A program made the translations under genes and the position numbers. From contig JACRGO010000034.1 of the NCBI GenBank assembly GCA_016212295.1, positions 1 through 18,064 of the forward strand: a stretch of DNA of 18,064 nt, written 5' to 3'. This DNA is from Nitrospinota bacterium. Lineage in GTDB: Bacteria; Nitrospinota; Nitrospinia; JACRGO01. Numbering within the stretch: the stretch's first letter is position 1; each line of letters opens with the position of its first letter. Below are positions 2,132 to 17,757 of the stretch, in pieces. The notes beneath the pieces are model-generated. The model did not search any database and was not told the DNA's origin. It was given only the letters and a program-made list of their open reading frames with translations.

Positions 2132-2279
2132 AGCGCAACATGTCCGCAACCAAAATAAATTTCTATGTATTCAAACGTTCGATGATATTATTACATCCAG
2201 AATTTTACGTTTTCCACGTTAATTAAATCAGCGTTGAATGCTTCAAGAGAAATTTGTTTTGGTTGCGGACATGCGCGCT
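2132..2279. repeat. Inverted-repeat element: about 32-bp arms (2132-2164 and 2248-2279, about 29/32 complementary) separated by 83 bp. The left arm plus core (2132-2185) is repeated at 6286-6340
   Basis: Left arm AGCGCAACATGTCCGCAACCAAAATAAATTTCT versus the reverse complement of AGAAATTTGTTTTGGTTGCGGACATGCGCGCT. The ORF-track extension of fabH (MNASREICFGCGHARS...) is a translation of the right arm. Confidence 0.75.
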
Positions 2280-2335
2280 CCAAGAAGCGCTTTAAAAACT
2301 TGCGCGGAAAACGCAAATTTCTGGACGTAATATAT

Positions 2336-3316
2336 ATGCTCCGGGCAAAAATCATTGGAACAGGTTCATACCTTCCGAAAAAGGTAATGACCAACCACGA
2401 CCTGGAAAAGTTGGTGGACACCTCCGATGAATGGATCATGACCCGGACCGGCATCCGGGAGCGGAGGATAGCGGACAAAAAGGAGGCAAGCTCTGATTTG
2501 GGGATCAAGGCGGCCAGGGAGGCTTTGGCCAATGCCGGCCTGAAGGCAAGCGACCTGGAATTGATACTCGTCGCCACCGCCACCCCGGACATGATCTTTC
2601 CTTCAACAGCGGCCTACGTCCAGCATGGACTTGGCGCCGGGAACGCCGCGGCCATGGATATTTCCGCGGTTTGCACCGGATTCATCTTCGGCCTTTCCAT
2701 AGCGGAACAATATATCAAAACAGGACGCTACAAGACTATTCTGGTTGTGGGCACGGAAATCATGTCCAGGATACTGGACTGGACTGACAGAAAAACCTGC
2801 GTCCTTTTCGGGGACGGCGCCGGCGCGGCCATCATCCAGGGTTCGGAAGACGAAAGCGGGATACTTTCCACGCATATTTACACGGACGGGTCATACGCGG
2901 ATTTTTTGCTGGCCCCTGGTTCCGGGACAAGGCATGGATATGGAAGCGCCGCGCAGGGGGACAAGTCAAATTGCATTCACATGAAGGGGAACGAAACCTT
3001 TAAGGTGGCGGTTAATTTCATGAGCAAGGTCGCGAGGGAGGCGCTTGAAAGCAACGGCTTGGCCTCGGAGGACATCGACCTCTTCATCCCCCACCAGGCA
3101 AACCAGAGGATCATTGAAGCCATTGCCAAAAAACTTGGCGTTCCCTCAGAAAAGGTTTTCATGAATTTGCATAAATACGGAAACACCTCAGCCGCTTCCG
3201 TTCCCATAGCCCTTGATGAGGCCCTTCGTGAAAACCGCATCAAGCGGGGCGACCTGGTGTTGATCGTGGCCTTTGGCGGCGGACTTACCTGGGGGGCTTC
3301 CCTGATAAGGTGGTGA
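2336..3316 (+). CDS. fabH: 3-oxoacyl-ACP synthase III (FabH)
   Basis: MLRAKIIGTGSYLPKKVMTNHDLEKLVDTSDEWIMTRTGIRERRIA is the canonical FabH N-terminus, with active-site Cys region AVCTGF. True ATG at 2336, not 2234. Confidence 0.92.
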   Translation: MLRAKIIGTGSYLPKKVMTNHDLEKLVDTSDEWIMTRTGIRERRIADKKEASSDLGIKAAREALANAGLKASDLELILVATATPDMIFPSTAAYVQHGLGAGNAAAMDISAVCTGFIFGLSIAEQYIKTGRYKTILVVGTEIMSRILDWTDRKTCVLFGDGAGAAIIQGSEDESGILSTHIYTDGSYADFLLAPGSGTRHGYGSAAQGDKSNCIHMKGNETFKVAVNFMSKVAREALESNGLASEDIDLFIPHQANQRIIEAIAKKLGVPSEKVFMNLHKYGNTSAASVPIALDEALRENRIKRGDLVLIVAFGGGLTWGASLIRW

Positions 3317-3431
3317 ATTTTTTTCAGCTTTCAGTATTCAGCAAAGGCATGGCAAAACTAAAAAAACAAATCCCTGGCCGCTGATTGCTGTGCGCTGAAA
3401 GCTTTTTGTGGTTTTTCGCGTCAAATTCCAC

Positions 3432-3437
3432 TATAAT
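3432..3437 (+). promoter_or_regulatory. Perfect TATAAT -10 hexamer upstream of the secreted-protein gene; no convincing -35
   Basis: TATAAT 35 bp upstream of the ATG at 3472. Implies the inserted gene may have its own promoter. Confidence 0.25.
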
Positions 3438-3471
3438 TTTTTTGATTTATAAACGGAGAGAAGGAAGAAAG

Positions 3472-4560
3472 ATGAATGCCTTTAATGCATGTACAAAAAA
3501 TATCGGCATTGCCCTTCTTCTTTTCCTGCTGAACCTGGTTTCTTTTATTCCGGCTTGGGCGGAAAATTTCCCGGAGCCAAATCCTCCTCTGGAAGGCCCA
3601 CGGCATCTTGAGAAAAAGAAACCTTTGCTGGAAAGGAGGGCCTTGGGGGCCCCCACAACTGAGTGGACCTACCATAAAAACCAAAAGGGAACGCATCCAA
3701 GCAATCACGAACAGGCCCTTGTATGGCTTATGAACAACGCCAGGAAGGACCCGAAAGCGGAGGGAATTTTTTTAGCCGCCACCACGGATACCGACGTGGC
3801 AAATGCGCGCCAGTATTTTAATGTCAACGCCACGATGCTCAAAAGCGAATTCGCTAAACTTCAGAAAAGGCCGCCAGCGGCCTTTGACATACGCCTTTAC
3901 AATGCCGCGTACGAACATAACAAAATTATCATTAAAAAGGACCAACAAAATCATCATGACCCCACTTGGTCACTTTATGATAAAGCAGGATTTGCCAGAA
4001 GGACCGCTGGACAGAATGTATACGCTTATGGAAAAAGCGCCATTTACCTCCATGCGGGTTGGAACATCGACTGGGGGCCAGACGCCTATGGAAAAACCAA
4101 GGGTGGAATGCAGGGGAGCGACAGCTCCGGGCGGGGCCACCGCTCCAACCTGATGGACCAAACCAAATATTCGGCCAGCTATCCCTTCGCCAACGTTGGA
4201 ATTTCAGTGGAATCCGAAAGCAACTCCGCAACCCAGGTAGGCCCCTTGGTGTCCACGGCCGATTTCGCCAATGCCGATACAAGCAAAGCCAATCACTACA
4301 ATGCCTTTATCGTGGGCACGGTTTGGCGGGACACTAATAAAAACGGCGTTTACGATTCCGGCGAAGGCTTGGGGGACGTCAAGGTTATGCCAAACCAGGG
4401 GACCTTTTGGGCAAAGACCGCGAAAAGCGGCGGATACGCCATTCCCGTGACTTCACCAGGCGATTACAACATCACATTTTCCGGCGGACAGCTCACGGCA
4501 AAAAAAACAAAAAAAACAACCGTGGTTAGTGAAAGCGTGTTGCTCGACTTAACATTGTGA
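3472..4560 (+). CDS. Secreted CAP/SCP (YkwD-like) domain protein with an unrecognised C-terminal Gly/Thr-rich domain
   Basis: N-terminal signal peptide MNAFNACTKNIGIALLLFLLNLVSFIPAWA. HEQALVWLMNNARKDP and GRGHRSNLMD...NVGISV match the CAP/YkwD H-x-x-N-x-x-R and GHRxNIL...GVG motifs. GGAG RBS precedes the start. The ORF-track start at 3385 is an upstream extension. Confidence 0.65.
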   Translation: MNAFNACTKNIGIALLLFLLNLVSFIPAWAENFPEPNPPLEGPRHLEKKKPLLERRALGAPTTEWTYHKNQKGTHPSNHEQALVWLMNNARKDPKAEGIFLAATTDTDVANARQYFNVNATMLKSEFAKLQKRPPAAFDIRLYNAAYEHNKIIIKKDQQNHHDPTWSLYDKAGFARRTAGQNVYAYGKSAIYLHAGWNIDWGPDAYGKTKGGMQGSDSSGRGHRSNLMDQTKYSASYPFANVGISVESESNSATQVGPLVSTADFANADTSKANHYNAFIVGTVWRDTNKNGVYDSGEGLGDVKVMPNQGTFWAKTAKSGGYAIPVTSPGDYNITFSGGQLTAKKTKKTTVVSESVLLDLTL

Positions 4561-4577: not shown

Positions 4578-5516
4578 ATGGCAACAAATTACGCCTTTCT
4601 CTTTCCCGGACAAGGGTCTCAGTATCCCGGCATGGGAAAGGAGCTGTGTGATAATTTTTCCGAGGCAAGGGAAGTCTTTGAGCAGGCCAACGAGGCCCTG
4701 GGATACGATCTCGCGTCCCTTTGCTTCCAAGGCCCGGAAGAGGAACTCAAGCAAACGGAAAAGACCCAGCCGGCCATCCTTACGGCCAGTATAGCGGCGG
4801 CGCGGGTATTGGAAAAGGAGGGCCTGAAACCGGCCATTACCGCCGGCCACAGTCTTGGGGAATATTCGGCGTTGGCCGCCGCTGGGTCCATCTCCTTCAT
4901 GGACGCGGCCAGGGTAACGGCCAAACGTGGGAGGTTCATGCAGGACGCCGTCCCGGACGGCGTTGGGGCAATGGCCGCCATCCTTGGACTGGAAAGCCGG
5001 AAAGTGGAAGAAATATGTTCGAGGGTTTCCAGGACCGGCAAGGTAAGCGCGGCCAATTATAACAGCCCTATCCAGGTGGTCATTGCCGGTGAAAAAAGCG
5101 CGGTGGAAGAGGCCATGGAGGAAGCCGGGAAGGAAGGGGCAAAGAAGATGGTCCTTCTGCCAATGAGCGTTCCTTCCCATTGCGATTTAATGGTCCCGGC
5201 GCGGGAAAGGTTGTCCCTGGAACTGGATAAAATATCCTTCGCGGACCCAAGTTTCCCGCTCATAGCCAATGTAAACGCCCTCGAAACCAGGAGCGGATTG
5301 GACGCAAGGAAAAACCTGAAAGGGCAGTTGACCAGCCCGGTCCGCTGGGTTGAGTCCATGGAAAGGATCGCTGGAGCAGTGAAAACCGTGATTGAGGTCG
5401 GACCCGGCAAGGTGCTCATCGGCCTCATGAAAAGGATCAATAAGGACATTCAATGCCTGAACGTTGAAGACATGCAAAGCCTTGAAAAGACCATGAATGC
5501 CATGAAAGAACATTGA
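4578..5516 (+). CDS. fabD: Malonyl-CoA:ACP transacylase (FabD)
   Basis: FLFPGQGSQYPGMGKEL and GHSLGEYSAL active-site motifs. 312 aa. Confidence 0.93.
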   Translation: MATNYAFLFPGQGSQYPGMGKELCDNFSEAREVFEQANEALGYDLASLCFQGPEEELKQTEKTQPAILTASIAAARVLEKEGLKPAITAGHSLGEYSALAAAGSISFMDAARVTAKRGRFMQDAVPDGVGAMAAILGLESRKVEEICSRVSRTGKVSAANYNSPIQVVIAGEKSAVEEAMEEAGKEGAKKMVLLPMSVPSHCDLMVPARERLSLELDKISFADPSFPLIANVNALETRSGLDARKNLKGQLTSPVRWVESMERIAGAVKTVIEVGPGKVLIGLMKRINKDIQCLNVEDMQSLEKTMNAMKEH

Positions 5517-5525
5517 CGGTTTATG

Positions 5526-5546
5526 ATTGACAATTGACGATTGAAC
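5526..5546. repeat. Heptamer tandem array ATTGACA-ATTGACG-ATTGAAC (contains two phased TTGAC -35-like hexamers)
   Basis: Three consecutive 7-mers read directly from the sequence. Confidence 0.7.
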
Positions 5547-5554
5547 CTTAAACA

Positions 5555-5589
5555 TTAAATCTTAAATCTTAAATCTTAAATTTTAAATC
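5555..5589. repeat. Heptamer tandem array (TTAAATC)x5 immediately upstream of the 5594 ORF
   Basis: TTAAATC TTAAATC TTAAATC TTAAATT TTAAATC. Confidence 0.85.
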
Positions 5590-5593
5590 CCTT

Positions 5594-6274
5594 ATGCTGG
5601 CAAACAGAGAAATAAAAACGAGACTGGAAAAGGCTTTCCCTATAAAACAGGCGGTGGCGCTGGCCGATGTTTTTATAGAATTCAAGGGAGACCTTGTCAA
5701 GTCTGGAGATTTCAACGAGCTTAAAAATGTAGTAAAAGAACTTGCCGAGGCTCAGAAGCGGACAGAAGTAAAAATGGGAGAACTTGCCGGCGCTCAGAAG
5801 AGGACAGAAGTAAAAATGGAAGAACTTGCCGAGGCGCAGAAACGGACGGATTATGAACTTGTCCTCTTTCGCCGCACTTTTACCTCTCAGATTGGAGGGC
5901 TTGGGGCGCGATGGGGTATGATGACGGAATCGTCGTTTCGCAACGCCATGGAGGGAATACTGTCAGAAGTTGGGTTCAAGGCCGAGAGGTTCATAGCTAA
6001 AGACAAAAAGGGGACAGTTTTCGGGTATCCGGCGGAAGTGGAGCTTGATGTTGTCGTTAAAAACGGCAAGACCCTGGTCATTGAGATTAAATCCTCGGTT
6101 AGCCGGGCGGACGCGGCCTCCTTTGACAAGAAGGTAAGCTTTTACGAGAAGGAGACACGGCGGAAGGCTAGCAGGAAGATAATTATATCTCCTTATACCG
6201 AGCCCGCGGCCCATGACGCCGCCAAAAGACTGGGGATCGAGGTTTTTACTGATATAAATGACCCGGCTTTGTAA
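5594..6274 (+). CDS. Coiled-coil-repeat plus PD-(D/E)XK-like nuclease-fold protein (DUF3782-like), inserted between fabD and fabG
   Basis: N-terminal 14-aa tandem repeats [14 protein letters not shown] x about 2.6. C-terminal [24 protein letters not shown] fits the D...(D/E)xK restriction-endonuclease-like core. No fab-pathway role. Confidence 0.55.
5738..5850 (+). repeat. In-frame 42-bp tandem repeat (about 2.6 copies) inside the 5594-6274 CDS
   Basis: Units 5738-5779 and 5780-5821 are near identical. The third unit diverges after about 27 nt. Confidence 0.85.
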
Positions 6275-6285
6275 CACAAACCCAC

Positions 6286-6340
6286 AGCGCGACGTGGCCG
6301 CAACCAAAATAAATTTTCGATGCATTCAAACGTTTCATGA
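6286..6340. repeat. Second copy (about 85% identical, one indel) of the 55-bp element seen at 2132-2185. A degraded right-arm remnant may lie at about 6406-6431
   Basis: AGCGCGACGTGGCCGCAACCAAAATAAATTTTCGATGCATTCAAACGTTTCATGA versus copy 1. Both copies lie just after a stop codon and upstream of a fab gene. Confidence 0.75.
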
Positions 6341-6418
6341 AGCCCCAAATTTCAATTGTCAGATAACAAATAAATCTCAATAACCAAAATTACAAAGAAA
6401 CAAAGAAATGAAATTGTT

Positions 6419-6447
6419 TTGGACATTCGGTAATTGTAATTTATAAT
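6419..6447 (+). promoter_or_regulatory. Candidate promoter TTGGAC-17-TATAAT upstream of fabG
   Basis: Perfect -10 TATAAT at 6442-6447 and a weak -35 at 6419-6424, in an AT-rich region about 130 bp upstream of fabG. Confidence 0.3.
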
Positions 6448-6574
6448 TTATTTGTCATTTGGGATTTCGTTTTCATTTTGGTTGAAGCGAAACCGCGCCA
6501 GGAAGCTTTGTGTCCTGGTGGCTTCGTGGCATATTTTTAATTAGAATCTTAACTGAAAGAAAGGTTTACCGAAA

Positions 6575-7318
6575 ATGAGTCTCGAAGGAAAAACCGCGTT
6601 AGTCACAGGGGCAGGCAGGGGAATCGGCAAGGCGATAGCCCTTGCCTTGGCCAAGGACGGGGCGAACGTGGCCGTGTCCGATATAGACCAGGGTTCCGCC
6701 AACCAAACCGCTGAAGAAATCAAATCCCTTGGAAGAGGCTCCATTGGATTGAAAGCGGACGTGTCCAGGTCCGAAGAGGTGGAGGGGATGTTTCAGGCAA
6801 TTGTGGACAAATTCGGCGGGGTTGATATACTGGTGAATAACGCCGGGATCACCAGGGACGGGTTACTGGTAAGAATGAAGGACGAGGATTGGAGCCTGGT
6901 CATGAAGATCAATCTGGACGGGGCCTTCTATTGCTCCAGGGCGGCCGGCAAGATCATGATGAAGCAAAGAAGAGGGGCCATAATCAACATCGCCTCAATC
7001 GTGGGGGTCATGGGAAACGCGGGCCAGGTGAATTATTCCGCGTCCAAGGCGGGCCTGATCGGCCTGACGAAATCCAGCGCACGGGAGCTTGCCTCAAGAG
7101 GGGTCACGGTAAACGCCATCGCCCCGGGTTTCATCGATACGGCAATGACACAGGCCCTGAACGATAAGGTAAAGGAAAAACTGATGGAGCAGATCCCGCT
7201 GGGCCGCTTGGGCTCCTCGGAGGACATCGCGAACGCGGTCCTCTTCCTTGCGTCTCCGGAAGCGGCCTATATAACCGGCCAGGTGCTCCATGTGAACGGG
7301 GGCATGCTGATGGCGTAG
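6575..7318 (+). CDS. fabG: 3-oxoacyl-ACP reductase (FabG)
   Basis: LEGKTALVTGAGRGIGKAIA Rossmann motif and SDR catalytic S...YSASKAG. 247 aa. Confidence 0.93.
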   Translation: MSLEGKTALVTGAGRGIGKAIALALAKDGANVAVSDIDQGSANQTAEEIKSLGRGSIGLKADVSRSEEVEGMFQAIVDKFGGVDILVNNAGITRDGLLVRMKDEDWSLVMKINLDGAFYCSRAAGKIMMKQRRGAIINIASIVGVMGNAGQVNYSASKAGLIGLTKSSARELASRGVTVNAIAPGFIDTAMTQALNDKVKEKLMEQIPLGRLGSSEDIANAVLFLASPEAAYITGQVLHVNGGMLMA

Positions 7319-7331
7319 GATGAGTTGTGAT

Positions 7332-7373
7332 GGTTCAGGGTTCAGGGTTCAGGGTTGAAGGTTGAAGGTTGAA
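7332..7373. repeat. Heptamer array (GGTTCAG)x3-(GGTTGAA)x3
   Basis: Read directly from the sequence. Imperfect inverted partner (AACCCAG)x3 at 7473-7492. Confidence 0.85.
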
Positions 7374-7472: not shown

Positions 7473-7492
7473 AACCCAGAACCCAGAACCAG
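7473..7492. repeat. Heptamer array AACCCAG x about 3, imperfect inverse of the 7332 array (one mismatch per unit)
   Basis: CTGAAACCCAGAACCCAGAACCAG. Confidence 0.7.
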
Positions 7493-7556: not shown

Positions 7557-7787
7557 ATGGATACAGCGGAAAAAGTAAAGAATATCATCATGGAGCAGCT
7601 TGGAGTCGAAGAAGGCCAAGTGACCTCCGAGGCTTCCTTTATTGACGATCTAGGCGCGGATTCCCTGGACACAGTGGAACTCGTCATGGCCTTTGAAGAG
7701 GCATTTGACATTGAGATACCGGATGAGGAAGCGGAAAAAATCATTACGGTAAAAGACGCAGTGGACTATATTGAGAAGCATGTATAA
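7557..7787 (+). CDS. acpP: Acyl carrier protein
   Basis: 76 aa with the DSLD phosphopantetheine-attachment motif. AAGGAGG RBS. Confidence 0.95.
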
Positions 7788-9044
7788 GTGAAAGACCAAG
7801 TAAATCAAAGAAGAGTAGTGGTGACCGGGCTCGGCCTGGTGACCCCCCTGGGAATAGGGGTGAAGGAAACGTGGGAAGGAATTTGCGCTGGACGGTCCGG
7901 CATCGGACGCATCACCAAATTCGACCCGACGGATTACTCCTGCCAAATCGCCGGGGAGGTTAAGGGATTCGACCCGACCAATTACATGGACGCCAAGGAG
8001 GCCAGGAAGATGGACCCCTTCATCCATTACGCCATGGTCGCGGGCTCCTTTGCCGTGGAGGATTCCGGCCTCAAAATAACTCCTGAGAACGACACCAGGG
8101 TAGGCGTAAGCATCGGCGTGGGCATGGGCGGCCTTCCGGTTATTGAAAAATACCACGAGGTCGTCCTGGAACGTGGCCCCAGAAAAATCACGCCATTCTT
8201 CATCCCAATGCTTATCGCAAACATGGCGGCCGGCCATCTGTCGATGAAGTTCGGCGCCAAGGGGCCGAACTGTTGCAGCGCCACAGCCTGCGCCACCGGC
8301 ACCCACGCCATGGGCGATTCCTTTGAAATCATCCGCCGCGGCGACGCGGACGTCATGATCGCGGGCGGCGCTGAATCCGTTATCACGAAACTGGGGATCG
8401 GCGGGTTTTGCGCCATGAAGGCCCTGGCCGCGAAATACAACGGCCAGCCGGAAAAGGGAAGCCGCCCCTTTGACAGGGACCGCGACGGGTTTGTTATGGG
8501 TGAAGGCTCAGGCGTGATGGTGCTTGAGGAGTTGGAATCGGCCAAACGCAGAGGGGCCAGGATTTACGCGGAAATTGTGGGATACGGAATGAACGCCGAC
8601 GCCTATCACATGACCTTGCCCCCGCCGGAGGGAGAAGGCGCCGCCCGGTGCATGAACCTGGCCCTGAAAAAAGGAAATATCAGGCCGGAAGAGATTGATT
8701 ACATAAACGCCCATGGCACTGGAACAGCCGCGGACGTCCTGGAAACAAAGGCCATAAAGTCCGTCTTCGGCGGCCACGCATACAAGCTGGCGGTCAGCTC
8801 CACCAAGTCAATGACCGGACATCTCCTCGGGGCAGCCGGTGGAATAGAGGGCGTTTTTTCCGTTCTTGCCATTGAAAGGGGAGTCCTTCCCCCGACCATT
8901 AATTTAGAGAACCCCGACCAGGAATGTGACCTGGATTATGTCCCTAACCAATCCAGAAAAAAAGAAATAAATTTCGCACTTTCCAATTCCTTTGGATTCG
9001 GCGGGACCAACGCCTGCGTTATTTTCAAGAAATTTAATTCCTGA
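7788..9044 (+). CDS. fabF: 3-oxoacyl-ACP synthase II (FabF)
   Basis: GTG start abutting the acpP stop. RRVVVTGLGLVTPLG N-terminus. Cys-His-His triad context (ATACATG, HGTGT, GHLLGAAG). Confidence 0.92.
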   Translation: MKDQVNQRRVVVTGLGLVTPLGIGVKETWEGICAGRSGIGRITKFDPTDYSCQIAGEVKGFDPTNYMDAKEARKMDPFIHYAMVAGSFAVEDSGLKITPENDTRVGVSIGVGMGGLPVIEKYHEVVLERGPRKITPFFIPMLIANMAAGHLSMKFGAKGPNCCSATACATGTHAMGDSFEIIRRGDADVMIAGGAESVITKLGIGGFCAMKALAAKYNGQPEKGSRPFDRDRDGFVMGEGSGVMVLEELESAKRRGARIYAEIVGYGMNADAYHMTLPPPEGEGAARCMNLALKKGNIRPEEIDYINAHGTGTAADVLETKAIKSVFGGHAYKLAVSSTKSMTGHLLGAAGGIEGVFSVLAIERGVLPPTINLENPDQECDLDYVPNQSRKKEINFALSNSFGFGGTNACVIFKKFNS

Positions 9045-9861
9045 ATTTATCCAGTTCCCTCGTTGTTTCCTGGGCAATGATTTCCATCAAATCGCTTGAG
9101 ATTTTTGGGACAACTGAAGGGACGCATGGCATTCCGGCTGAGGAATGCTGGAGGGAGACGAACTTTCCCGACGGACACGCCTTGCACGATTCGCAGCGGG
9201 CGAGGATTTTCTTGGGCGGAAGGCCAAGCCCCTCGCCCACTTTCCGCAATTTTTCTATCTGGCCCTGAGACAAGGGATGCAGGTCCCCCAACTGCCTTGC
9301 CGCGTGGGTGATTTGCGCCACGTGCTCGATCCGCTCCAACAGATTATATGCGTCAAACACGGTGGCGCCAACTGTCAGGGACCCATGCCGTTCCAGCATG
9401 ATGGCGTCGAAATCCTTGATGTATTCCTGAATGGACTGCGGCACCTCGTCCGTTGTGGGGGTGGAATATGACGCGGTTGGAATGGATCCCAGTGTGAAGA
9501 CCACCTCCGGCAGCATGCACTTGGCCAGGGAGACTCCAGCCAACGTGAAGGCCACGCAATAGGTGGGATGAGCATGGACCACCGCCATGACGTCCGGCCT
9601 CATCCTGTAGCACTCCAGGTGCATCCTGATTTCAGACGAAGGACCGTATTGGCCGGATATCCGCGCACCCTCCATATCGATCACCACCAGGTCGCGCTCG
9701 TTAATGAAACCCTTATGGAGTTTGGTGGGAGTGGTGAGGACGCGGTTTCTGGGCAGGCGGAGGCTCACGTTGCCGTCGCTGGCCGCGATCCATCCCTTGT
9801 TGTACATCCTGCGGCAGACCTCCACTATGTCTTTTCTATGCTCTTCTTCGTTTTTTATCAT
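9034..9861 (-). CDS. Class II aldolase (FucA/RhaD/adducin-head family) with a C-terminal Cys-rich extension; BMC cargo candidate
   Basis: True start MIKNEEEHRKDIVEVCRRMYNKGW at 9861; the upstream MSLVTRHLSLISV is repeat-derived. HAHP metal-binding context. About 60-aa C-terminal tail with CESCKACPSGK...C and an amphipathic SSDLMEIIAQETTRELDKF. The 3' end overlaps the fabF 3' end convergently by 11 nt. Confidence 0.85.
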   Translation of the reverse strand: MIKNEEEHRKDIVEVCRRMYNKGWIAASDGNVSLRLPRNRVLTTPTKLHKGFINERDLVVIDMEGARISGQYGPSSEIRMHLECYRMRPDVMAVVHAHPTYCVAFTLAGVSLAKCMLPEVVFTLGSIPTASYSTPTTDEVPQSIQEYIKDFDAIMLERHGSLTVGATVFDAYNLLERIEHVAQITHAARQLGDLHPLSQGQIEKLRKVGEGLGLPPKKILARCESCKACPSGKFVSLQHSSAGMPCVPSVVPKISSDLMEIIAQETTRELDKFRN

Positions 9862-9872
9862 GACTGAAATCA

Positions 9873-9928
9873 GTGACAAGTGACGAGTAACAAGTGACAA
9901 GTGACAAGTGGCGAGTAACGAGTAAAAA
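9873..9928. repeat. Heptamer array A: GTGACAA GTGACGA GTAACAA GTGACAA GTGACAA GTGGCGA GTAACGA GTAAAAA
   Basis: Eight consecutive 7-mers. Preceded by TGACTGAAA. Confidence 0.9.
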
Positions 9929-9964
9929 ACGGAAAATGCCCCACTTGATCCATGCCTCTTGACA

Positions 9965-10237
9965 CTATCCCGAACAATTTATCTGATCCACTATAGCTGT
10001 AATGACCGAATGGACCGGCGCGGAGTCGTCTCCAAAAAGCTGCCTGGCCGCGTTCCCTTCCGGGGCAACCAGCACCGTGTCCCCTTCCCCTGCCTGCACA
10101 AAATCAACAGCCAGGAAGGAGCTTCCCGTTGGTTTCTGCTCCTGGTCCAGGGGCTGGACCACAAGGACCTTGTGCCCCTCGTAAGCCGGGTGCTTCAAGG
10201 TCGCGACGACATTTCCCAATACCTTGCAGATCAACAT
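9965..10237 (-). CDS. BMC vertex protein (EutN/PduN/CcmL family, BMC-P) copy 1
   Basis: MLICKVLGNVVATLKHPAYEGHKVLVVQP matches the PF03319 N-terminus. The ORF-track start at 10327 is an extension through the repeat array. Confidence 0.85.
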   Translation of the reverse strand: MLICKVLGNVVATLKHPAYEGHKVLVVQPLDQEQKPTGSSFLAVDFVQAGEGDTVLVAPEGNAARQLFGDDSAPVHSVITAIVDQINCSG

Positions 10238-10247
10238 TTTTTTCTTA

Positions 10248-10296
10248 GTGACCAGTGACGAGTAACGAGTGATCAGTGGCGAGTAACGAGTGACGA
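10248..10296. repeat. Heptamer array B1 (GTGACCA GTGACGA GTAACGA GTGATCA GTGGCGA GTAACGA GTGACGA)
   Basis: Seven 7-mers. Inverted partner B2 lies 24 bp away. Confidence 0.9.
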
Positions 10297-10320
10297 GTCT
10301 TAGAAGCATAGGTTTTTTAC

Positions 10321-10369
10321 TTGTCACTCGTCACTTGTCACTCGTCACTATTTATTTGTCACTCGTCAC
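10321..10369. repeat. Heptamer array B2 (TTGTCAC TCGTCAC TTGTCAC TCGTCAC TATTTAT TTGTCAC TCGTCAC), inverse of B1. The two form a palindrome of about 120 bp
   Basis: Reverse-complement orientation of B1. It contains the stop codon and last codons (..SSDE*) of the BMC-P gene at 10359-10637. Confidence 0.9.
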
Positions 10370-10637
10370 TGCTCCTTGCGTCTATATTGTCAACAATCCC
10401 GACGATACCGGCGTCTATGGGACTGAAGGTGTCCGGCAGAGTCAGGGCCGCCTCGCGTCCGACCACATAAGAGACGGTCTCGCCGATTCCGGCCTGTTGG
10501 GCGTCCACCATCACAAGAGGCTCTCCCTTGGGTTTTCGCTCGTGGTCCACCGGCTGCACCAGCAGGAGCTTGATTCCCTCCAGGCTTGGATGCTTCACCG
10601 TGGCCACCACCCGTCCTATTACTTTTCCTATGTGCAT
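10359..10637 (-). CDS. BMC vertex protein (EutN/PduN family, BMC-P) copy 2
   Basis: MHIGKVIGRVVATVKHPSLEGIKLLLVQPV. GGAG RBS. C-terminal tail encoded by repeat array B2. Confidence 0.85.
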   Translation of the reverse strand: MHIGKVIGRVVATVKHPSLEGIKLLLVQPVDHERKPKGEPLVMVDAQQAGIGETVSYVVGREAALTLPDTFSPIDAGIVGIVDNIDARSSDE

Positions 10638-10772
10638 GAAAAAACTCCAGCCACAAACTTTATTCAGTTTTCCCTTAATATATCAATAACTACGTTGACA
10701 ATTGAATTTATTGCGCCACTTTTTAGTTTGCCTATTTCAGAAATAATCAGTTTATTGTGAATGGTATTAATA

Positions 10773-10994
10773 CTACCGAGCCTTTTGAAAATGTTGCCAT
10801 GCCTCATCCTCCTCTGGACGGTTCCAATCTTCCGCGAGGGCTGTTTCGCTTAACAAGGCTTCCTCATTTACATGAATTAAAGGTTCCTCATCAAGAATCG
10901 TGACTAATGCACGGCAGGATGAAGACAGTTTAATCGGTTCAGACAACTTAATATTGCCTTTTAGATCAATTGTTGCTTCAAGTATGCGGACCAT
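10773..10994 (-). CDS. Small AF2212/AbrB-like, antitoxin-like protein (73 aa), orphan
   Basis: True start MVRILEATIDLKGNIKLSEPIKL...ALVTILDEE with AGGAGG 7 nt upstream; the ORF-track TTG start translates the RBS. C-terminal LSETALAEDWNRPEEDEAW resembles the tails of type II antitoxins that pair with PIN toxins. No toxin gene is adjacent. Confidence 0.4.
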   Translation of the reverse strand: MVRILEATIDLKGNIKLSEPIKLSSSCRALVTILDEEPLIHVNEEALLSETALAEDWNRPEEDEAWQHFQKAR

Positions 10995-11066
10995 ATTAGG
11001 CCTCCTTTTTTTCAAATAAATATGCTTTTATTTAATGAAATCAAATATACACATTTCTTGATAGAG

Positions 11067-11078
11067 TAGCAATTGCTA
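11067..11078. promoter_or_regulatory. Perfect 12-bp palindrome TAGCAATTGCTA flanked by inverted TGATAG/CTATCA hexamers; candidate operator
   Basis: About 70 bp upstream of the 10994 start codon on the - strand. Confidence 0.3.
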
Positions 11079-11084
11079 TCACAA

Positions 11085-11630
11085 TTAGAGCAATTTAAAA
11101 TTCAAATCCGCATGGGGGGCGGGGATGATCTCCTTTGCAACCAGGGTCCCCCCTTCCATTAAATTCCTGATCCCTGCCTCTATCGCGGCTTCCACCTCGG
11201 AGATGTCGCCGGTCAGGGTGTAAAACGATTTTCCGCCAAGGCCGTTGGCAAGGCGCAGCTCGATGAGGTCCACCTTCGCCGCCTTCACCGCCGTGTCGGC
11301 TGAAACAATGGCCGAGGCCACTGAGAAGGTCTCCACTATCCCCAATGCCGCAAGTCCCGCCACCTCGGTGCATGCCTCCATTGCCGGGATGACCTGCCCA
11401 TGTACCTGGGGCAGAAAAAGTTCGTCCACCACAAGTTCTGCCCCTATGCTTATCCCCTCCCTGACGGCTTCCTCGACCGAGGCAACGTCGCCGCGCACAA
11501 GGACCATGTACTTTCCGGGGCACACGGTCCTTGCTTCCATGAGCTTCACCGGGGCCTTTTTCATCATGGCGTCGCAAACCCGTATTCCCCTGGCAACGCT
11601 TCTTAGTTCTATTAATCCTATAGCTTCCAT
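11085..11630 (-). CDS. Tandem BMC-domain shell protein (BMC-T, PduT-like)
   Basis: Two PF00936-like halves: MEAIGLIELRSVARGIRVCDAMMKKA... and LAALGIVETFSVASAIVSADTAVKAAKV.... 181 aa. Confidence 0.8.
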   Translation of the reverse strand: MEAIGLIELRSVARGIRVCDAMMKKAPVKLMEARTVCPGKYMVLVRGDVASVEEAVREGISIGAELVVDELFLPQVHGQVIPAMEACTEVAGLAALGIVETFSVASAIVSADTAVKAAKVDLIELRLANGLGGKSFYTLTGDISEVEAAIEAGIRNLMEGGTLVAKEIIPAPHADLNFKLL

Positions 11631-11638
11631 TAATTATC

Positions 11639-11672
11639 CACGTTATCAGTTCACGGTTTACGGTTCACGGTT
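11639..11672. repeat. Heptamer array CACGTTA TCAGTT CACGGTT TACGGTT CACGGTT; left boundary of the four-helix-bundle cassette
   Basis: Inverse partner AACCGTG array at 12042-12069. Contains the stop codon of the 11665-12015 gene. Confidence 0.85.
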
Positions 11673-12015
11673 TTTTCAATGAATCATGCAAGGCTTGCAA
11701 CATTTTTGATATGGATTTCAACTCATTAATCAAACCTTTTGCGTCACTGTCGGAAAATACGTTAATTTCCCTTGAAATATAAACTTGTGTCCGCAGTTCC
11801 GCCGCCGAGCCTTTTGCAATGTTTATAAACCTTTGAAAATCTGGAACACTGTTTCTTTCGCACCCTTCCGCGATATTCGATGGAATAGATACGGATGAGC
11901 GCAACATTTGATCTTTCAGCCCATAATCACGGCAATCTTTTAATAATTTATAGAGGGTTACTGTCAGTCTGCAAGATTTTTTCCAAACTTCTAAATTCTC
12001 AAAGGAAGCGCTCAT
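11665..12015 (-). CDS. Four-helix-bundle protein (23S rRNA intervening-sequence protein / Avd-like family, TIGR02436-type), intact copy
   Basis: LEVWKKS...LKDQMLRSSVSIPSNIAEG..R.S..DFQRFINIAKGSAAELRTQVYIS matches the family consensus. Flanked by inverted CACGGTT/AACCGTG heptamer arrays. Confidence 0.85.
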   Translation of the reverse strand: MSASFENLEVWKKSCRLTVTLYKLLKDCRDYGLKDQMLRSSVSIPSNIAEGCERNSVPDFQRFINIAKGSAAELRTQVYISREINVFSDSDAKGLINELKSISKMLQALHDSLKKP

Positions 12016-12041
12016 AACCTTTTTCTATTTTCTGCTTCACC

Positions 12042-12069
12042 AACCGTGAACTGTGAACCGTGAACCGTA
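12042..12069. repeat. Heptamer array AACCGTG AACTGTG AACCGTG AACCGTA; right boundary of the four-helix-bundle cassette
   Basis: Reverse complement of the 11639-11672 array. Confidence 0.85.
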
Positions 12070-12090
12070 AACAATTTTCTTATTTTATGT

Positions 12091-13425
12091 CTACCTGCTT
12101 TCAATTCCCACATACCTCCCGTTCACCTCCGCCACTGTCCCGTCCATGGAGGCGTGGACTCTGGCGCCCATTTTTCCCTCCGGTATCTCGCCCACCAATT
12201 GGCCTTGCTTCACCTTGTCCCCTGTCTTCACCACAGGGACGGCGGCCGCGCCGATATGCTGCCTCAAGGGAATTTTTACATTGGTGAAGGGAAAATCCCT
12301 TTCTTCCCATTCGGGGTGGACGTCGTATTCCTTTAGACCCAGCCTTTGAATCAACCGGTCCTTGGGGATTTTCCTGTAGTCGCGGTATTGGTCCTGGGCC
12401 AGGCCGCTTCGTGAATGCGGGTTCTTTATCCCTGCCCCGGCTAGGCGTCCCTTGAATTCCCTGAAAACAACGCGGGGAGAAAGGGCCATGGGACAGGCAT
12501 AGAGGTCGCATACCCCGCATTCACAACAGAGAAAGGCGCGGGTTATTGTGTCGGTGTCAAGGTCCCGATCATAGTCTATTACCCGCATAATCTTGTGCGG
12601 CTCAAGACTATGCCCCTGGAGCCAGCGGGGACAAAAATCAGTGCAGTAGCGGCACTGCTCGCAAATTGATTTGGACATGCGCGCCTCTGTGGCCACTGTC
12701 CTGCTTCTTCGCATTACGTAAGGGTGGTCCTTTGGGAGCACGATGATCCCGGAGGTGGTCTTCGTGACCGGCTCCCCGCAATCCCCTGCCAACCGTCCCA
12801 TCATGGGTCCCCCCACCAGAATAACGTAATCCTCTATCCTGGCCCCGCCGCACAGCGCTATGAGGTCCTTGAAAGAAACGCCGATAGGGACCCGCAGGAC
12901 CCTTGGCCAGTTGACCTCTCCGCATACCGTTATCCGCTGGCGGACCACGGGTTCGCCGTGGAAGGCGCGGTGGATGTTGAGCAGGGTGTTGACGTTATTC
13001 ACCAAGACGCCCACATGCAAGGGAAGGCCGCCTTCGGGAATTATTCTTCCAGCGGCGTCCAGGACCAAAACATGCTCATCGCCCGCCGGGTAATAATTCC
13101 CCATTTCATGCAGCCTGATATTTTTTTCGGAGGCTGCTGCCTGGGAAAGCGATTTTACCGCTTCGTGATAATGGGCCTTGACAGCGATAATCCCCTGTCC
13201 GGCACCAACTGCCTCCATCACGAGCTTGACGCCGGAGACGATCTCGTCCGCCGCCGTCTCCATGGTCCTCTGGTCCGTGCAGAGAAGGGGCTCGCATTCC
13301 GCTCCATTGGCGATCACTATCTCAGCCCTGGCGTTGATCTTTACGTGGGTTGGAAACCCAGCCCCTCCGGCGCCCACCACTCCGGCGTTTTTAACTTTTT
13401 CTATTAATTGTTCGCGAAAACGCAT
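12091..13425 (-). CDS. PduS/RnfC-like Fe-S flavoprotein oxidoreductase (BMC-associated)
   Basis: True start MRFREQLIEKVKNAGVVGAGGAGFPTHVK with the RnfC/NqrA-type GAGGAGFP motif. Two 4Fe-4S motifs, CEQCRYCTDFCP and CCECGVCDLYACP. The ORF-track start at 13521 runs through repeat array C (LLVTRHLSLVT). Confidence 0.85.
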   Translation of the reverse strand: MRFREQLIEKVKNAGVVGAGGAGFPTHVKINARAEIVIANGAECEPLLCTDQRTMETAADEIVSGVKLVMEAVGAGQGIIAVKAHYHEAVKSLSQAAASEKNIRLHEMGNYYPAGDEHVLVLDAAGRIIPEGGLPLHVGVLVNNVNTLLNIHRAFHGEPVVRQRITVCGEVNWPRVLRVPIGVSFKDLIALCGGARIEDYVILVGGPMMGRLAGDCGEPVTKTTSGIIVLPKDHPYVMRRSRTVATEARMSKSICEQCRYCTDFCPRWLQGHSLEPHKIMRVIDYDRDLDTDTITRAFLCCECGVCDLYACPMALSPRVVFREFKGRLAGAGIKNPHSRSGLAQDQYRDYRKIPKDRLIQRLGLKEYDVHPEWEERDFPFTNVKIPLRQHIGAAAVPVVKTGDKVKQGQLVGEIPEGKMGARVHASMDGTVAEVNGRYVGIESR

Positions 13426-13435
13426 TTGAATGATA

Positions 13436-13498
13436 GTGACTGAAAGATAGTGACAAGTGACAAGTGACAAGTGACGAGTGACAAGTAAAAAGTAAAAA
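13436..13498. repeat. Heptamer array C (GTGACTG..GTGACAA x3 GTGACGA GTGACAA GTAAAAA GTAAAAA)
   Basis: Inverted partner D at 13571-13619, 72 bp away. Confidence 0.9.
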
Positions 13499-13570
13499 CT
13501 TATAGCTCTTTGGGCGGACAAAAAAAATCAATGGCCAGGGATCAGTACCGGCTCCTGGATTCTTTTCTAC

Positions 13571-13619
13571 TCGTCACTCGTCACTTGTCACTCGTTACTG
13601 CTTCTCGGTAACTCGTCAC
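13571..13619. repeat. Heptamer array D (TCGTCAC TCGTCAC TTGTCAC TCGTTAC ... TCGTCAC), inverse of C
   Basis: Ends 4 bp from the aldehyde dehydrogenase stop codon. Confidence 0.9.
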
Positions 13620-13623
13620 TGCT

Positions 13624-15114
13624 TCAAACAATTCTAAACCTGTCCTTCAAAGTACAGCGGCGCTCCCTTGTGAAGTGGACGGCGGTGGTCAGGCCCTCTC
13701 CGGTGGGGCTGGCTATGGTGAAGGACGTATACCCTTCCCCGGTGAAGCCCAATCCGGCGTATGAAGGTCCGTTCTTCACGAAGATGGAGGTGTTGATTTC
13801 CCGCGCCATGCGGCTCAGCTTGTCGATGTTTCTGGAGTGCATCACCGCCGTGTGGCCGAACCCGTGCTCCACCTCCTTGGCCAGGTCAATGGCGGCGTCC
13901 GCGTCCTTGACCCTAACCAACGGAATCAAAGGCATGAGAAGTTCCATCTGGACAAAGGGATGGCCGGCGTCCGTCTCGGCGATGATCAACCGGATATCCT
14001 CCCCGACGTTGACGCCGATCTCCTTCAGGATAACCGCCGCGTCCTTTCCCACGAATTTCTTGTTAACCACTCCGTGGGAGCCGTCAACCGGCGGCTCCTG
14101 GATAATAAGCTTCCGCATCTGGCGGATTTGCTGCTGGTTCAACTCGTAGCAGCCGTTTCGCTTGAGGGCGGATTTCAGGGAATCCGCTATTGAGGCCACT
14201 GCTATGATCTCCTTTTCCACTATGCAGACCATGTTGTTGTCGAATGACGCGCCGTTTACTATGTCAACCGCCGCGTTTTCGATGTCCGCTGTCTCGTCCA
14301 CCACCACAGGCGGATTACCTGGTCCGGCGGCGATCACCTTCTTTCCTGAATTCATGGCGGCCTTGACCACCGCGGGTCCGCCGGTGACCACCAATAACCG
14401 TATGCCGGGATGCTCCATGAGTTCCCTGGCCGATTGAATGGTCGGCTCTGATATAGTGGTTATGAGGTCCCTGGGACCGCCCGCCTTGGCTATGGCCCTG
14501 TTGAGGAGATCGACTGAATAAATGGAGATTTTTTTAGCGGTCGGGTGGGCGTTGAACACCACCGCGTTTCCCCCGGCCAGCATGCTCACCGCGTTGTTGA
14601 AGATCGTCGCGAAGGGATTTGTGCATGGGGTGATGGACCCTATGACGCCGTAAGGGGCGCGTTCCACCAACGTGAGTCCGTTATCGCCCGTGTAGCTGAC
14701 TGGTTGCAGTATTTCCAGTCCAGGCGTTTTTTCTATTGACAACCTGTTTTTCAGCGCCTTGTCCTTGACCCGGCCCATGCCTGTCTCTGACACCGCCATC
14801 TCCGCGAGTTTTTGCGCCTCTTCCAGGGCGGTTGATCGCATGGAGGCGATGATCCCGCCACGAAGGGACAAGGGCATACTGCTAAGTTCCGCGAAGGCCT
14901 TCGCGGCGGCAAGGACCGCTGAATTAATATCGCCGAACACTCCAAGCCCCTCGCCCTTGCTTTCCTTAGCGGATGAGGACGGACAGCCGTGAGGCGGATT
15001 GAACGCCGCCTGGGGCTTCGAGGGACCTGGAGCGCTAATGGTCTGCCCGCTCCATATCCTTTCAGCAACCCTTCTCACTATTGAGGCAATCTGGTCTTCT
15101 GTAAGTTGTGTCAT
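13624..15114 (-). CDS. CoA-acylating aldehyde dehydrogenase (PduP/EutE-like BMC core enzyme) with N-terminal encapsulation-peptide-like helix
   Basis: 496 aa. ALDH catalytic region ...MVCIVEKE.../...GEGYTSFTIASPTGEG. N-terminal amphipathic EDQIASIVRRVAERI followed by a Pro/Ser/Gly linker before GVFGDINSAV. Confidence 0.88.
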   Translation of the reverse strand: MTQLTEDQIASIVRRVAERIWSGQTISAPGPSKPQAAFNPPHGCPSSSAKESKGEGLGVFGDINSAVLAAAKAFAELSSMPLSLRGGIIASMRSTALEEAQKLAEMAVSETGMGRVKDKALKNRLSIEKTPGLEILQPVSYTGDNGLTLVERAPYGVIGSITPCTNPFATIFNNAVSMLAGGNAVVFNAHPTAKKISIYSVDLLNRAIAKAGGPRDLITTISEPTIQSARELMEHPGIRLLVVTGGPAVVKAAMNSGKKVIAAGPGNPPVVVDETADIENAAVDIVNGASFDNNMVCIVEKEIIAVASIADSLKSALKRNGCYELNQQQIRQMRKLIIQEPPVDGSHGVVNKKFVGKDAAVILKEIGVNVGEDIRLIIAETDAGHPFVQMELLMPLIPLVRVKDADAAIDLAKEVEHGFGHTAVMHSRNIDKLSRMAREINTSIFVKNGPSYAGLGFTGEGYTSFTIASPTGEGLTTAVHFTRERRCTLKDRFRIV

Positions 15115-15121
15115 TGTCTAA

Positions 15122-15409
15122 TTACTTCTTAAACACCAACTTATCGTCGATGTCCCATTGGTCCACTATGGCCATTATGACAGCGTCTACTGGTTTATTA
15201 TTGGTTATGTCCGTTTGCCTCGCCGAACTTCCAGTGGCGTAGAGCACTATCTCTCCCTGGCCCGCGCCGACGGAGTCGGCCGCCACCACATAGTTCTGGC
15301 CGGCCTTCCCCCTGGAATCAACGCCAGCCACAAGCTGGAGCTTGAGGCCCTCCAGCTTAGGGTCTTTCTGGGAGGCGACAACCGTCCCAACCACTTTTCC
15401 GAATAACAT
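15122..15409 (-). CDS. BMC vertex protein (EutN/PduN family, BMC-P) copy 3
   Basis: [34 protein letters not shown] 8 nt upstream. The ORF-track start at 15445 would overlap the BMC-H gene. Confidence 0.85.
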
Positions 15410-15419
15410 GAGCGGTCTC

Positions 15420-15710
15420 CTATTCCGTAGCGTTCGAGCGCCCAAGCGGGAGGGCCTTGTCGATATTGAGGTGCGGCCTTGGAATCACGTGGACGGACAC
15501 CAACTGCCCGACCTTCTCAGCGGCGCGGGAGCCGGCCTCGGTGGCGGCCTTGACCGCCGCGACGTCTCCCCTCACTATGGCGGTGACGTAGCCGCCGCCG
15601 GTTTTTTCGTATCCGACCAACTCAACCTTGGCCGCCTTGACCATGGCGTCCGACGCCTCAACCATGGCGGTGAAACCCCGCGTTTCTATCATTCCCAATG
15701 CTTCAGCCAT
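15420..15710 (-). CDS. BMC-H hexameric shell protein (PduA/EutM-like)
   Basis: [56 protein letters not shown] is a canonical PF00936 sequence. GGAGG RBS. Confidence 0.93.
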
Positions 15711-15768
15711 AAAAAAACCTCCTTATAAAAAGTTAAATTAATAAAATTCGTAACTACTCATGTTATCC

Positions 15769-15839
15769 GGTTCAGGGTTCAGGGTTCAGGGTTCAGAGTT
15801 CCCGGTTGAAAGCTTTGTGGCCTTTGTGCCTTTGTGGTG
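15769..15839. repeat. Heptamer array (GGTTCAG)x4-like followed by the octamer-like repeat CTTTGTGG CCTTTGTG CCTTTGTG in the BMC-T/BMC-H intergenic gap
   Basis: Same GGTTCAG unit as at 7332. Confidence 0.8.
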
Positions 15840-15845
15840 AAAAAA

Positions 15846-16472: not shown

Positions 16473-16491
16473 TGTTTAATCCTCCATTTTA

Positions 16492-16528
16492 AGTGACTAT
16501 AAAACCAGTGACCAGTGACGAGTAATTA
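16492..16528. repeat. Heptamer array E (GTGACTA...GTGACCA GTGACGA GTAATTA)
   Basis: Overlaps the stop codon of the 16526-16807 gene. Inverse partner F at 16827-16847. Confidence 0.8.
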
Positions 16529-16807: not shown

Positions 16808-16826
16808 GAAATCCCTCCCTTTTAAC

Positions 16827-16847
16827 TCGTCACTTGTCACTCGTCAC
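16827..16847. repeat. Heptamer array F (TCGTCAC TTGTCAC TCGTCAC), inverse of E
   Basis: Read directly from the sequence. Confidence 0.85.
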
Positions 16848-16853
16848 TATCTT

Positions 16854-17723: not shown

Positions 17724-17729
17724 GATGAA

Positions 17730-17757
17730 ATTATACACGGAAAAAATTTCTTGTCAA
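17730..17757 (-). promoter_or_regulatory. Strong sigma70-like promoter TTGACA-16-TATAAT for the RpiR gene; the ATG lies 6 nt after the -10, so the mRNA is probably leaderless
   Basis: - strand TTGACA corresponds to 17752-17757 and TATAAT to 17730-17735. Confidence 0.55.

Follow-up and report, generated by a model that had tools for sequence, protein, structure and literature searches.

A stalked PD-(D/E)XK-family gene between fabD and fabG of a Nitrospinota genome, and relatives whose stalks differ in length by whole repeat units

We analyzed an 18,064-nt stretch of DNA (hereafter the window), which is the complete contig JACRGO010000034.1 of a Nitrospinae/Nitrospinota metagenome-assembled genome (MAG), and focused on an open reading frame (ORF) that lies between fabD and fabG in a cluster of fatty-acid synthesis (fab) genes. 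With confidence only a little better than even, we favor the reading that this ORF encodes an intact, selectively maintained member of a family of stalked, Hjc/NucS-like nucleases, and that its product is a self-associating DNA endonuclease whose gene rides the fab transcript. The protein appears to have three parts, namely a conserved helical head of ~45 residues, a heptad stalk of three 14-residue units and a C-terminal minimal PD-(D/E)XK domain. The gene and its parts are as follows:

5594-6274, + strand: nuclease ORF, 226 aa, ATG start
5594-5728, + strand: N-terminal head (residues 1-45), two short helices, with a conserved F-P motif (P16) and D39-F40-x-x-L43
5736-5847, + strand: 42-bp tandem repeat, 2.7 copies, encoding the 14-residue (two-heptad) unit of the stalk (Tandem Repeats Finder [TRF] score 182, 85% matches)
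5894-5917, + strand: GGLGARWG motif (residues 101-108) at the junction of stalk and nuclease domain
5918-6271, + strand: C-terminal nuclease domain
5927-5929, 6047-6049, 6083-6085 and 6089-6091, + strand: catalytic residues E112, D152, E164 and K166, respectively

Two Pfam domains place the protein in its family. PF07788 (PDDEXK_10) matches residues 148-216 with an E-value of 1.4e-20 (73.4 bits against a cut-off of 21.2), spanning profile positions 2-74 of 74, and PF12644 (DUF3782) matches residues 74-146, directly N-terminal to the nuclease core, with an E-value of 7e-20. The latter domain had been guessed at in a preliminary description made from the letters of this DNA alone, and its score of 71.4 bits against a cut-off of 24.4 bears the guess out. 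The same description had read ELDVVV...IEIKS as the D...ExK signature of a PD-(D/E)XK fold, which we could locate at D152, E164 and K166, with the PDDEXK_10 match and conservation in agreement. The non-lipid ORF that it had noticed between fabD and fabG is also real; two homologs (P0003 and P0007) begin at the residue equivalent to its ATG, and the NCBI entry, MBI5184504.1, is named "DUF3782 domain-containing protein." Judged by its sequence, the ORF is a further member of a catalogued, functionally uncharacterized family.

That family, DUF1626 (PF07788, COG5493), was assigned to the PD-(D/E)XK superfamily by Knizewski et al. 2007 (PMC1913061), who linked it to DUF91 (NucS) and, by meta-profile, to Hjc/Hje, and who described an N-terminal coiled coil in most members and a threonine in place of the motif III lysine in some. 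Steczkiewicz et al. 2012 (PMC3424549) listed its function as "Unknown" and its distribution as patchy, suggesting "multiple HGT events" (HGT, horizontal gene transfer). Hartmann et al. 2016 (PMC4786415) described "a family of prokaryotic endonucleases" with N-terminal coiled-coil stalks (Pfam DUF3782); they studied crenarchaeal stalk relatives in the context of trimeric fibers, found that bacterial DUF3782 members lack the nonads of the crenarchaeal ones, and reported stalk-only relatives without a nuclease domain. Since the descriptions date from 2007 (PMC1913061) and 2016 (PMC4786415), neither the family nor its architecture is new. Our ORF shares with DUF3782/PDDEXK_10 proteins both Pfam domains, the order of stalk and then C-terminal nuclease, the predicted topology and the patchy prokaryotic distribution. 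Its clade keeps the canonical ExK lysine, in contrast to the archaeal DUF1626 members with threonine, and its stalk consists purely of heptads, unlike the nonad-containing alpha/beta coiled coil of crenarchaeal members.

The catalytic residues are conserved. In an alignment of the nuclease core with 19 homologs, E112, D152, E164 and K166 are invariant, as are K180 and Y184; across 50 full-length homologs, E112, D152 and E164 never vary, and K166 is retained in at least 90%. The preliminary description had made its nuclease assignment hinge on conservation of the D/E/K residues, and the invariant E-D-ExK set answers that point. These residues are predicted to form a complete E-D-ExK metal-binding site within a minimal PD-(D/E)XK domain of the Hjc/NucS type. 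The nuclease domain has a ratio of nonsynonymous to synonymous substitution (dN/dS) of 0.05-0.20 against its three closest homologs, and the gene is therefore functional and constrained, its nuclease domain being under purifying selection.

The fold agrees with this assignment. An AlphaFold2 (AF2) model has a predicted local distance difference test score (pLDDT) of 82 overall, of 92-98 in the C-terminal domain and of 62-74 in the head, and its top structural matches are NucS/EndoMS and AF1548, with EndoMS/NucS placed first by Foldseek. A profile search of PDB sequences gave no significant match to any chain, no NCBIfam model matched the ORF, and the only PHROGs match was a coiled-coil-type one to a tape-measure protein (E 0.0055). 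The archaeal Holliday junction resolvases Hjc and Hje (PDB 1gef, 1hh1, 1ob8) match our protein in size and motif pattern: helix 1 carries G-x-x-x-E, strand 2 ends in D and strand 3 contains E-x-K-S. NucS/EndoMS (PDB 2vld, 5gkj) carries an N-terminal beta-barrel for dimerization and DNA binding and a PCNA-binding tail, whereas our ORF encodes a helical head and a coiled coil. The ORF has no PF01939 (DUF91) match and its N-terminal half is all-helical, so that only the catalytic domain is NucS-like and the protein falls outside NucS/EndoMS itself.

Might the protein retain the fold and yet serve in vivo as a structural or nucleic-acid-binding coiled-coil protein rather than as a nuclease? The threonine-bearing members (PMC1913061) and the stalk-only relatives (PMC4786415) would be precedents for such a protein, but all four catalytic residues are invariant in this clade and the nuclease domain is under strong purifying selection. 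We regard this reading as very improbable.

Upstream of the nuclease domain, the AF2 model shows two short N-terminal helices (residues 4-14 and 17-32) followed by one long helix over residues 37-125. Within the head, F40 and L43 are invariant among 50 homologs, and P16 and D39 are each found in at least 90% of them. The GGLGARWG motif is likewise well conserved in the close family, with G101, G104, W107 and G108 invariant and G102, A105 and R106 conserved in at least 90%. It may be a hinge or part of the entrance to the active site, a role that is tentative because model confidence is low there (pLDDT 53-60 over residues 100-120).

The heptad core of the stalk reads F V Q M Q M Q L F at the a positions and L L T L T L T F Q at the d positions, with a 3.5-residue periodicity (p ~0.02). 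Relative to the first copy of the 42-bp unit, the second is 90% and the third 74% identical. The preliminary description was right about the repeats and generous in calling them near-perfect; because the copies are only 74-90% identical, the array at this locus is no hypermutable contingency locus.

We also looked at the stalk across the family, for which the nuclease domain alone served as the query of an exhaustive HMMER search of 1.84 billion representatives. By this count the family comprises 743 clusters at 50% identity (E ≤1e-3), or 409 at E ≤1e-10. The nuclease domain is almost always C-terminal, preceded by an extension of 5-280 residues (median, 146); this extension is shorter than 40 residues, leaving little or no stalk, in 6 of 145 cluster representatives, some of which may be truncated gene calls.

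Among relatives, the number of stalk repeats is polymorphic. The length preceding GGLGARWG falls into a single class modulo 7 in 68 of 115 close homologs (~16 expected), with no such excess for moduli 5, 6, 8, 9 or 11, and of 393 spacings between successive L-x-x-x-Q repeat anchors, 383 measure 7, 14, 21 or 28 residues. The 42-bp unit, present in 2.7 copies here, occurs at least 6.1 times in the closest homolog, whose nuclease domain is 84% identical at the nucleotide level. In a Methanospirillum cluster at 90% identity, full-length alleles of 227, 241, 255, 269, 283, 297 and 311 aa correspond to 3-9 units, the 227-aa allele being found on 27 contigs and the 241-aa allele on 8; a second 90%-identity cluster yields the series 228, 242, 256, 270 and 312 aa. 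Heads and nuclease domains are near-identical across each series. Stalks of other clades are built from unrelated units, including RRWEENE (7 residues), LERAVEG (7) and LRSEFQQEMAA (11) as well as units of 14, 18, 21, 22, 25 and 28 residues, all of them coiled-coil periodicities, and paralogs within one genome differ in stalk length. The preliminary description had proposed an N-terminal coiled-coil half with a changing number of repeats, and comparison among relatives upholds this in the form of allelic series in 14-aa steps. As judged from the sequences of relatives, and not from this locus, an expandable stalk is well supported.

One way to read these steps is that the enzyme acts as a ruler: the head would be anchored to a partner or to a site on DNA, and the distance from there to the cut would be fixed by the rigid stalk, so that gain or loss of one 14-residue unit (~2.1 nm, ~6 bp) would retune the cut site, analogous to the coiled-coil spacer of HsdS. 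The restriction enzymes EcoR124I and EcoR124/3 reportedly differ in just this manner, with 2 and 3 copies of a 4-residue spacer repeat, and Price et al. are said to have proven the functional consequence in 1989. In both cases, in-frame tandem repeats within the coiled coil of a nuclease system change in copy number by slippage and so alter a molecular distance; however, HsdS has two DNA-reading domains and a 4-residue repeat, whereas the present family has a 14-residue unit in 3-9 or more copies and no known DNA-reading domain. The reading would account for a head that is conserved independently of the stalk (F40 and L43 invariant, P16 and D39 nearly so), for strictly quantized length changes, for paralogs of unequal stalk length in one genome and for the independent use of repeat-built stalks by different clades. 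Against this, the head has no recognizable DNA-binding fold or Pfam match and is modeled at a pLDDT of only 62-74, neutral slippage in any coiled coil predicts quantized change equally well, and 6 of the 145 representatives have an extension below 40 residues, even if some of these may be truncated gene calls. We consider such a ruler improbable.

In the reading that we prefer, whose statements on nuclease activity, oligomeric state, substrate, co-transcription and biological role we infer, the product would be a Mg2+-dependent DNA endonuclease. The stalk would self-associate and keep at least two nuclease heads next to each other, an arrangement needed for cutting both strands of DNA. Because it is encoded by 42-bp tandem repeats, the stalk would gain or lose whole units, by replication slippage or unequal recombination, with the heptad register preserved; its length could therefore vary freely between close relatives, drifting, or being tuned, in whole heptad-preserving units. 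The gene would be a chromosomal "loner" without a partner gene, read through from fabD, and fabG would regain a promoter in a palindromic element downstream of the ORF. As for its role, our best guess, by analogy with Hjc and NucS, is that it acts in repair or recombination on DNA that is branched or damaged, not in restriction or self-mobility.

Several points weigh against this reading. A literature search found no biochemically assayed member of the family. Polar residues, Q at a and T at d, take up half of the stalk core, the AF2 model, being of a monomer, is silent on self-association, and a dimer is not assured given the trimeric-fiber context of the crenarchaeal stalks (PMC4786415). Short-read assemblies can miscount perfect repeats, and part of the allelic series could be an artifact, although the 227- and 241-aa alleles each recur on several contigs (27 and 8). 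Co-transcription is argued solely from the absence of predicted signals. Finally, the family has a patchy distribution in bacteria and archaea and is multi-copy, with more than one locus in several MAGs, at least six in one Chloroflexota MAG and two copies at a few loci; a core repair enzyme would not usually show such a pattern, which is more in line with accessory or selfish genes.

The second-ranked explanation is that of a selfish "lodger," a nuclease gene that spreads horizontally, persists by settling inside essential operons, in which its deletion or polar effects would come at a cost, and may promote its own integration by cutting or recombining DNA, like free-standing homing endonuclease genes or the multi-copy Rpn/YhgA recombination-promoting nucleases. 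Rpn/YhgA-like PD-(D/E)XK proteins (PDDEXK_2) are encoded by multi-copy, partner-less chromosomal genes in unrelated contexts. Members of our family are likewise multi-copy, partner-less and scattered, but they belong to a different Pfam family with no sequence relationship detected, and Rpn/YhgA proteins lack a coiled-coil stalk.

Family loci occur in Poribacteria, Chloroflexota, Binatia, Methylomirabilota, Desulfobacterota-type MAGs, Cyanobacteria, Methanophagales, Caldarchaeum, Archaeoglobaceae and others. There is no conserved neighborhood: clustering of the neighbors of 80 homologous loci revealed no conserved partner gene, only lineage synteny (Poribacteria, Methanophagales, Caldarchaeum). 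The 150 nearest neighbors are mostly housekeeping enzymes (PIN domains in 4, Polbeta-type in 3), no methyltransferase, transposase or integrase is among their 25 commonest families, and no PADLOC family is matched by more than 3 of them. No relatives were found in PLSDB plasmids, INPHARED phages or IMG/VR. Both neighbors are co-oriented with the family gene at 33 of 64 loci, and a tight sandwich is seen in 18 cases. At four Methanophagales loci (L022, L023, L053 and L059), the gene has the same direction as trpF (PRAI) and trpB (PALP) and sits between them in an operon for aromatic amino acids, a second case of a family gene in a housekeeping operon that echoes the fab position.

A selfish gene would be in keeping with the patchy distribution across bacteria and archaea and the several copies in some genomes, for which "multiple HGT events" have been proposed (PMC3424549), with the occurrence of the closest homologs (84% nucleotide identity in the nuclease domain) in three unrelated genomic contexts, with the recurrence in housekeeping operons (fabD-fabG here, trpF-trpB in Methanophagales), with the co-oriented and sandwiched loci, and with atypical codon usage in the window. 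However, the gene has no terminal repeats and similarity stops within the coding sequence (CDS), transposases and integrases are missing from the recurrent neighbor families, and plasmid, phage and viral-contig copies are lacking. In Poribacteria the gene is syntenic across species, which points to vertical inheritance there, and a dN/dS of 0.05-0.2 speaks of long-term constraint, although selfish nucleases can be constrained too. We judge selfishness unlikely, if the most credible of the alternatives.

A stand-alone defense nuclease, which we rank third and consider quite unlikely, would be either a type IV-like cutter of modified or foreign DNA or a type III CRISPR effector or accessory, with an arms race driving stalk length. 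In its favor is a match to the PADLOC model C3a181 (E 3e-12), derived from a search for accessory genes of type III CRISPR systems (PMC6546367); that model represents a three-member cluster with a low score, however, and its label, "diadenylate cyclase," is evidently wrong. In archaea, HEPN/MNT genes are found together with DUF1626 genes (PMC3710099), PIN and Polbeta-type neighbors are seen in 4 and 3 of 150 cases, and rapid repeat variation, multiple copies and horizontal transfer are features of the family. On the other hand, the annotated genes of the window are fab genes, microcompartment genes and a few small genes that are unrelated or of unknown function, with no cas or methyltransferase gene among those scanned; no PADLOC family recurs in more than 3 of the 150 neighbors; and the protein has no CARF/SAVED or modification-reading domain, its only extras being the 45-residue head and the coiled coil.

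A type II restriction-modification system would call for a methyltransferase, and none is present among the window ORFs scanned or the recurrent neighbors of the 80 loci; a type III CRISPR accessory would call for a cas gene, and none is present among the window ORFs scanned or the top neighbor families. The terminal inverted repeats and traveling flanks expected of cargo in a transposable element or miniature inverted-repeat transposable element (MITE) were not seen. The preliminary description had suggested a selfish or defense-type role, and for this we found no positive evidence, given the lack of plasmid, phage or viral copies, of a mobile-element or defense-island neighborhood and of a methyltransferase partner, and the strong purifying selection. 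Of the two things that it had proposed to check in homologs, multiple copies were seen, in several genomes, and defense-island neighborhoods were not. Our preferred reading of a repair- or recombination-type nuclease stays first in rank.

Returning to the window, the fab cluster occupies the first half of the contig on the + strand, in the order yceD, a small ORF, plsX, fabH, an SdrD-like ORF, fabD, the nuclease ORF, fabG, acpP and fabF:

988-2079, + strand: plsX
2234-3316, + strand: fabH
3385-4560, + strand: 391-aa ORF, SdrD_B/CarboxypepD_reg-like, between fabH and fabD
4578-5516, + strand: fabD
6575-7318, + strand: fabG
7557-7787, + strand: acpP
7788-9044, + strand: fabF

The 391-aa ORF, with weak SdrD_B, CarboxypepD_reg and fn3-like matches, is a second non-lipid gene within the cluster, and its GC content at third codon positions (GC3), 0.555, is below that of the fab genes. 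The nuclease ORF has a GC3 of 0.54, so that the two ORFs, at 0.54-0.56, stand apart from the fab genes at 0.65-0.73. This composition is consistent with a later arrival of both, though no proof of it, and a late insertion of the nuclease gene into the fab operon is plausible. The closest FabD proteins in a scan of the metagenome collection are only 52-59% identical, and the scan yielded no sister genome for an empty-site comparison. Adjacency of fabD and fabG, described as universal in the preliminary account, is not: in 41 unrelated metagenomic fab loci with both genes, the spacing is below 60 nt in 21, while a gap of ~560-610 nt splits the genes in 19 (among loci L102-L132). Where we read such a gap (locus L103, 5903-6517), it holds a 204-aa Cys-rich DUF3109 gene. 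The position of the nuclease gene in the fab operon is an idiosyncrasy of this genome.

The regions flanking the ORF contain repeats and palindromic elements of several kinds:

5512-5589, + strand: fabD-ORF spacer with ATTGACN and CTTAAAT heptamer arrays, context outside the gene module
2132-2279: near-perfect hairpin element of 150 nt between plsX and fabH (26-bp terminal stem, minimum free energy -61.8 kcal/mol, z -9.8)
6286-6498: imperfect palindromic (MITE-like) element between the nuclease ORF and fabG, a degenerate copy (z -2.6)
6420-6447, + strand: sigma-70-like promoter, TGGACA-16-TATAAT, matching 11 of 12 consensus positions, within the 6286-6498 element and 128 nt upstream of fabG
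2089-2128 (9-mer), 5526-5589, 7328-7373, 7473-7490, 9872-9923, 10247-10298, 10319-10370, 11649-11672, 12042-12072, 13449-13498, 13569-13599, 15769-15807, 16504-16523 and 16825-16848: tandem arrays across the contig

In the spacer, TRF finds 2.7 copies of ATTGACA at 5526-5544, with an extra ATTGACG at 5512 overlapping the fabD stop, and 6.1 copies of CTTAAAT at 5547-5589, ending 4 nt before the ATG of the nuclease ORF. We considered these heptamers as part of a mobile module and rejected them: period-7 arrays occupy most of the window's intergenic regions (12 of them, after merging, in 18 kb, whereas other loci have 0.19-0.46 per 10 kb), they are not common to the flanks of homologs, and loci L002, L085 and L086 have none. 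The claim that the arrays are the gene's own therefore fails. The same holds for the 55-nt repeat that had been taken as part of the inserted module and that we tried as its end; the repeat, at 6286-6340, has its counterpart at 2132-2185 (chance would give 0.01 occurrences of its 19-nt core, which is present 3 times), and the left 55 nt of the 6286-6498 element repeat the left arm of the hairpin element, so that it is an arm of a palindromic element also present between plsX and fabH, upstream of fabH. DNA similarity to the three closest homologous loci runs from ~5603 to ~6272, inside the CDS, and the flanks share nothing; no inverted repeats bracketing the ORF were found in the window. The unit, if any, is the bare gene.

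The 2132-2279 element may be a repeat of the MITE-like or palindromic type, or else a structured leader common to fabH and fabG; no Rfam family reaches its gathering score anywhere in the window, this element included. Heptamer units in the contig include AGTGACA/AGTAACG, GGTTCAG, ACTCGTC, CTTAAAT, ATTGACA, AACCGTG and others, and some arrays form inverted pairs able to fold into long hairpins. Among described phenomena, the arrays come nearest to the TAACTGA heptamers repeated between genes in Beggiatoaceae, cyanobacteria and Bacteroidetes (PMC4679880), from which this contig differs in that many different units coexist. In other genomes, arrays lie beside 4 of 20 family genes and 24 of 109 neighboring genes, with no enrichment. 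Loci with at least two period-7 arrays number 9 of 85 family loci (among them L019, L023, L026, L057, L069, L074, L078 and L083) and 0 of 48 fabD control loci (L087-L134; Fisher p 0.026). The link between the nuclease family and heptamer-rich genomes is weak, being confounded by phylogeny, and the arrays show no preference for positions next to the family gene.

With regard to transcription, the ORF lies 77 nt behind fabD, and a scan of this spacer found neither a sigma-70-like promoter nor a terminator, for which reason the ORF is probably co-transcribed with the fab genes by read-through from fabD. Spacers between TTGACN and TTAAAT boxes in the arrays measure 15 or 22 nt (by eye), and we considered a promoter within the ATTGACN/CTTAAAT arrays and discarded it, as the scan found none.

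The second half of the contig carries a bacterial microcompartment (BMC) locus on the - strand (9034-17738), with genes for a class II aldolase, EutN/CcmL (~9965-10237, by eye; 15122-15445), BMC shell proteins, an RnfC/Nuo51-like protein, an aldehyde dehydrogenase and an RpiR-type regulator. Inside this operon, a "23S rRNA-intervening sequence protein" gene (PF05635, E 3e-35; 11665-12015, - strand) is bracketed by mutually inverted arrays of the heptamers GTTCACG and AACCGTG (11649-11672 and 12042-12072), which could pair in the transcript and resemble the stem flanking rRNA intervening sequences.

For this window the finding has little consequence, as the gene can be correctly annotated as a "DUF3782 domain-containing protein." For the family, which comprises ~740 clusters at 50% identity in bacteria and archaea with an intact nuclease site, the quantized allelic stalk series is the sole result worth carrying forward. 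Length polymorphism in 14-residue steps among near-identical alleles, and repeat-built stalks invented independently across clades, are absent from the literature examined, and the series offers a test case for functional versus neutral coiled-coil length in an enzyme, with ready-made alleles for experiments. If the stalk does act as a ruler, 42-bp slippage over 3-9 units would give the enzyme an inheritable means of adjusting its cut position or its target, and such genes may persist as lodgers in essential operons such as fab and trp.

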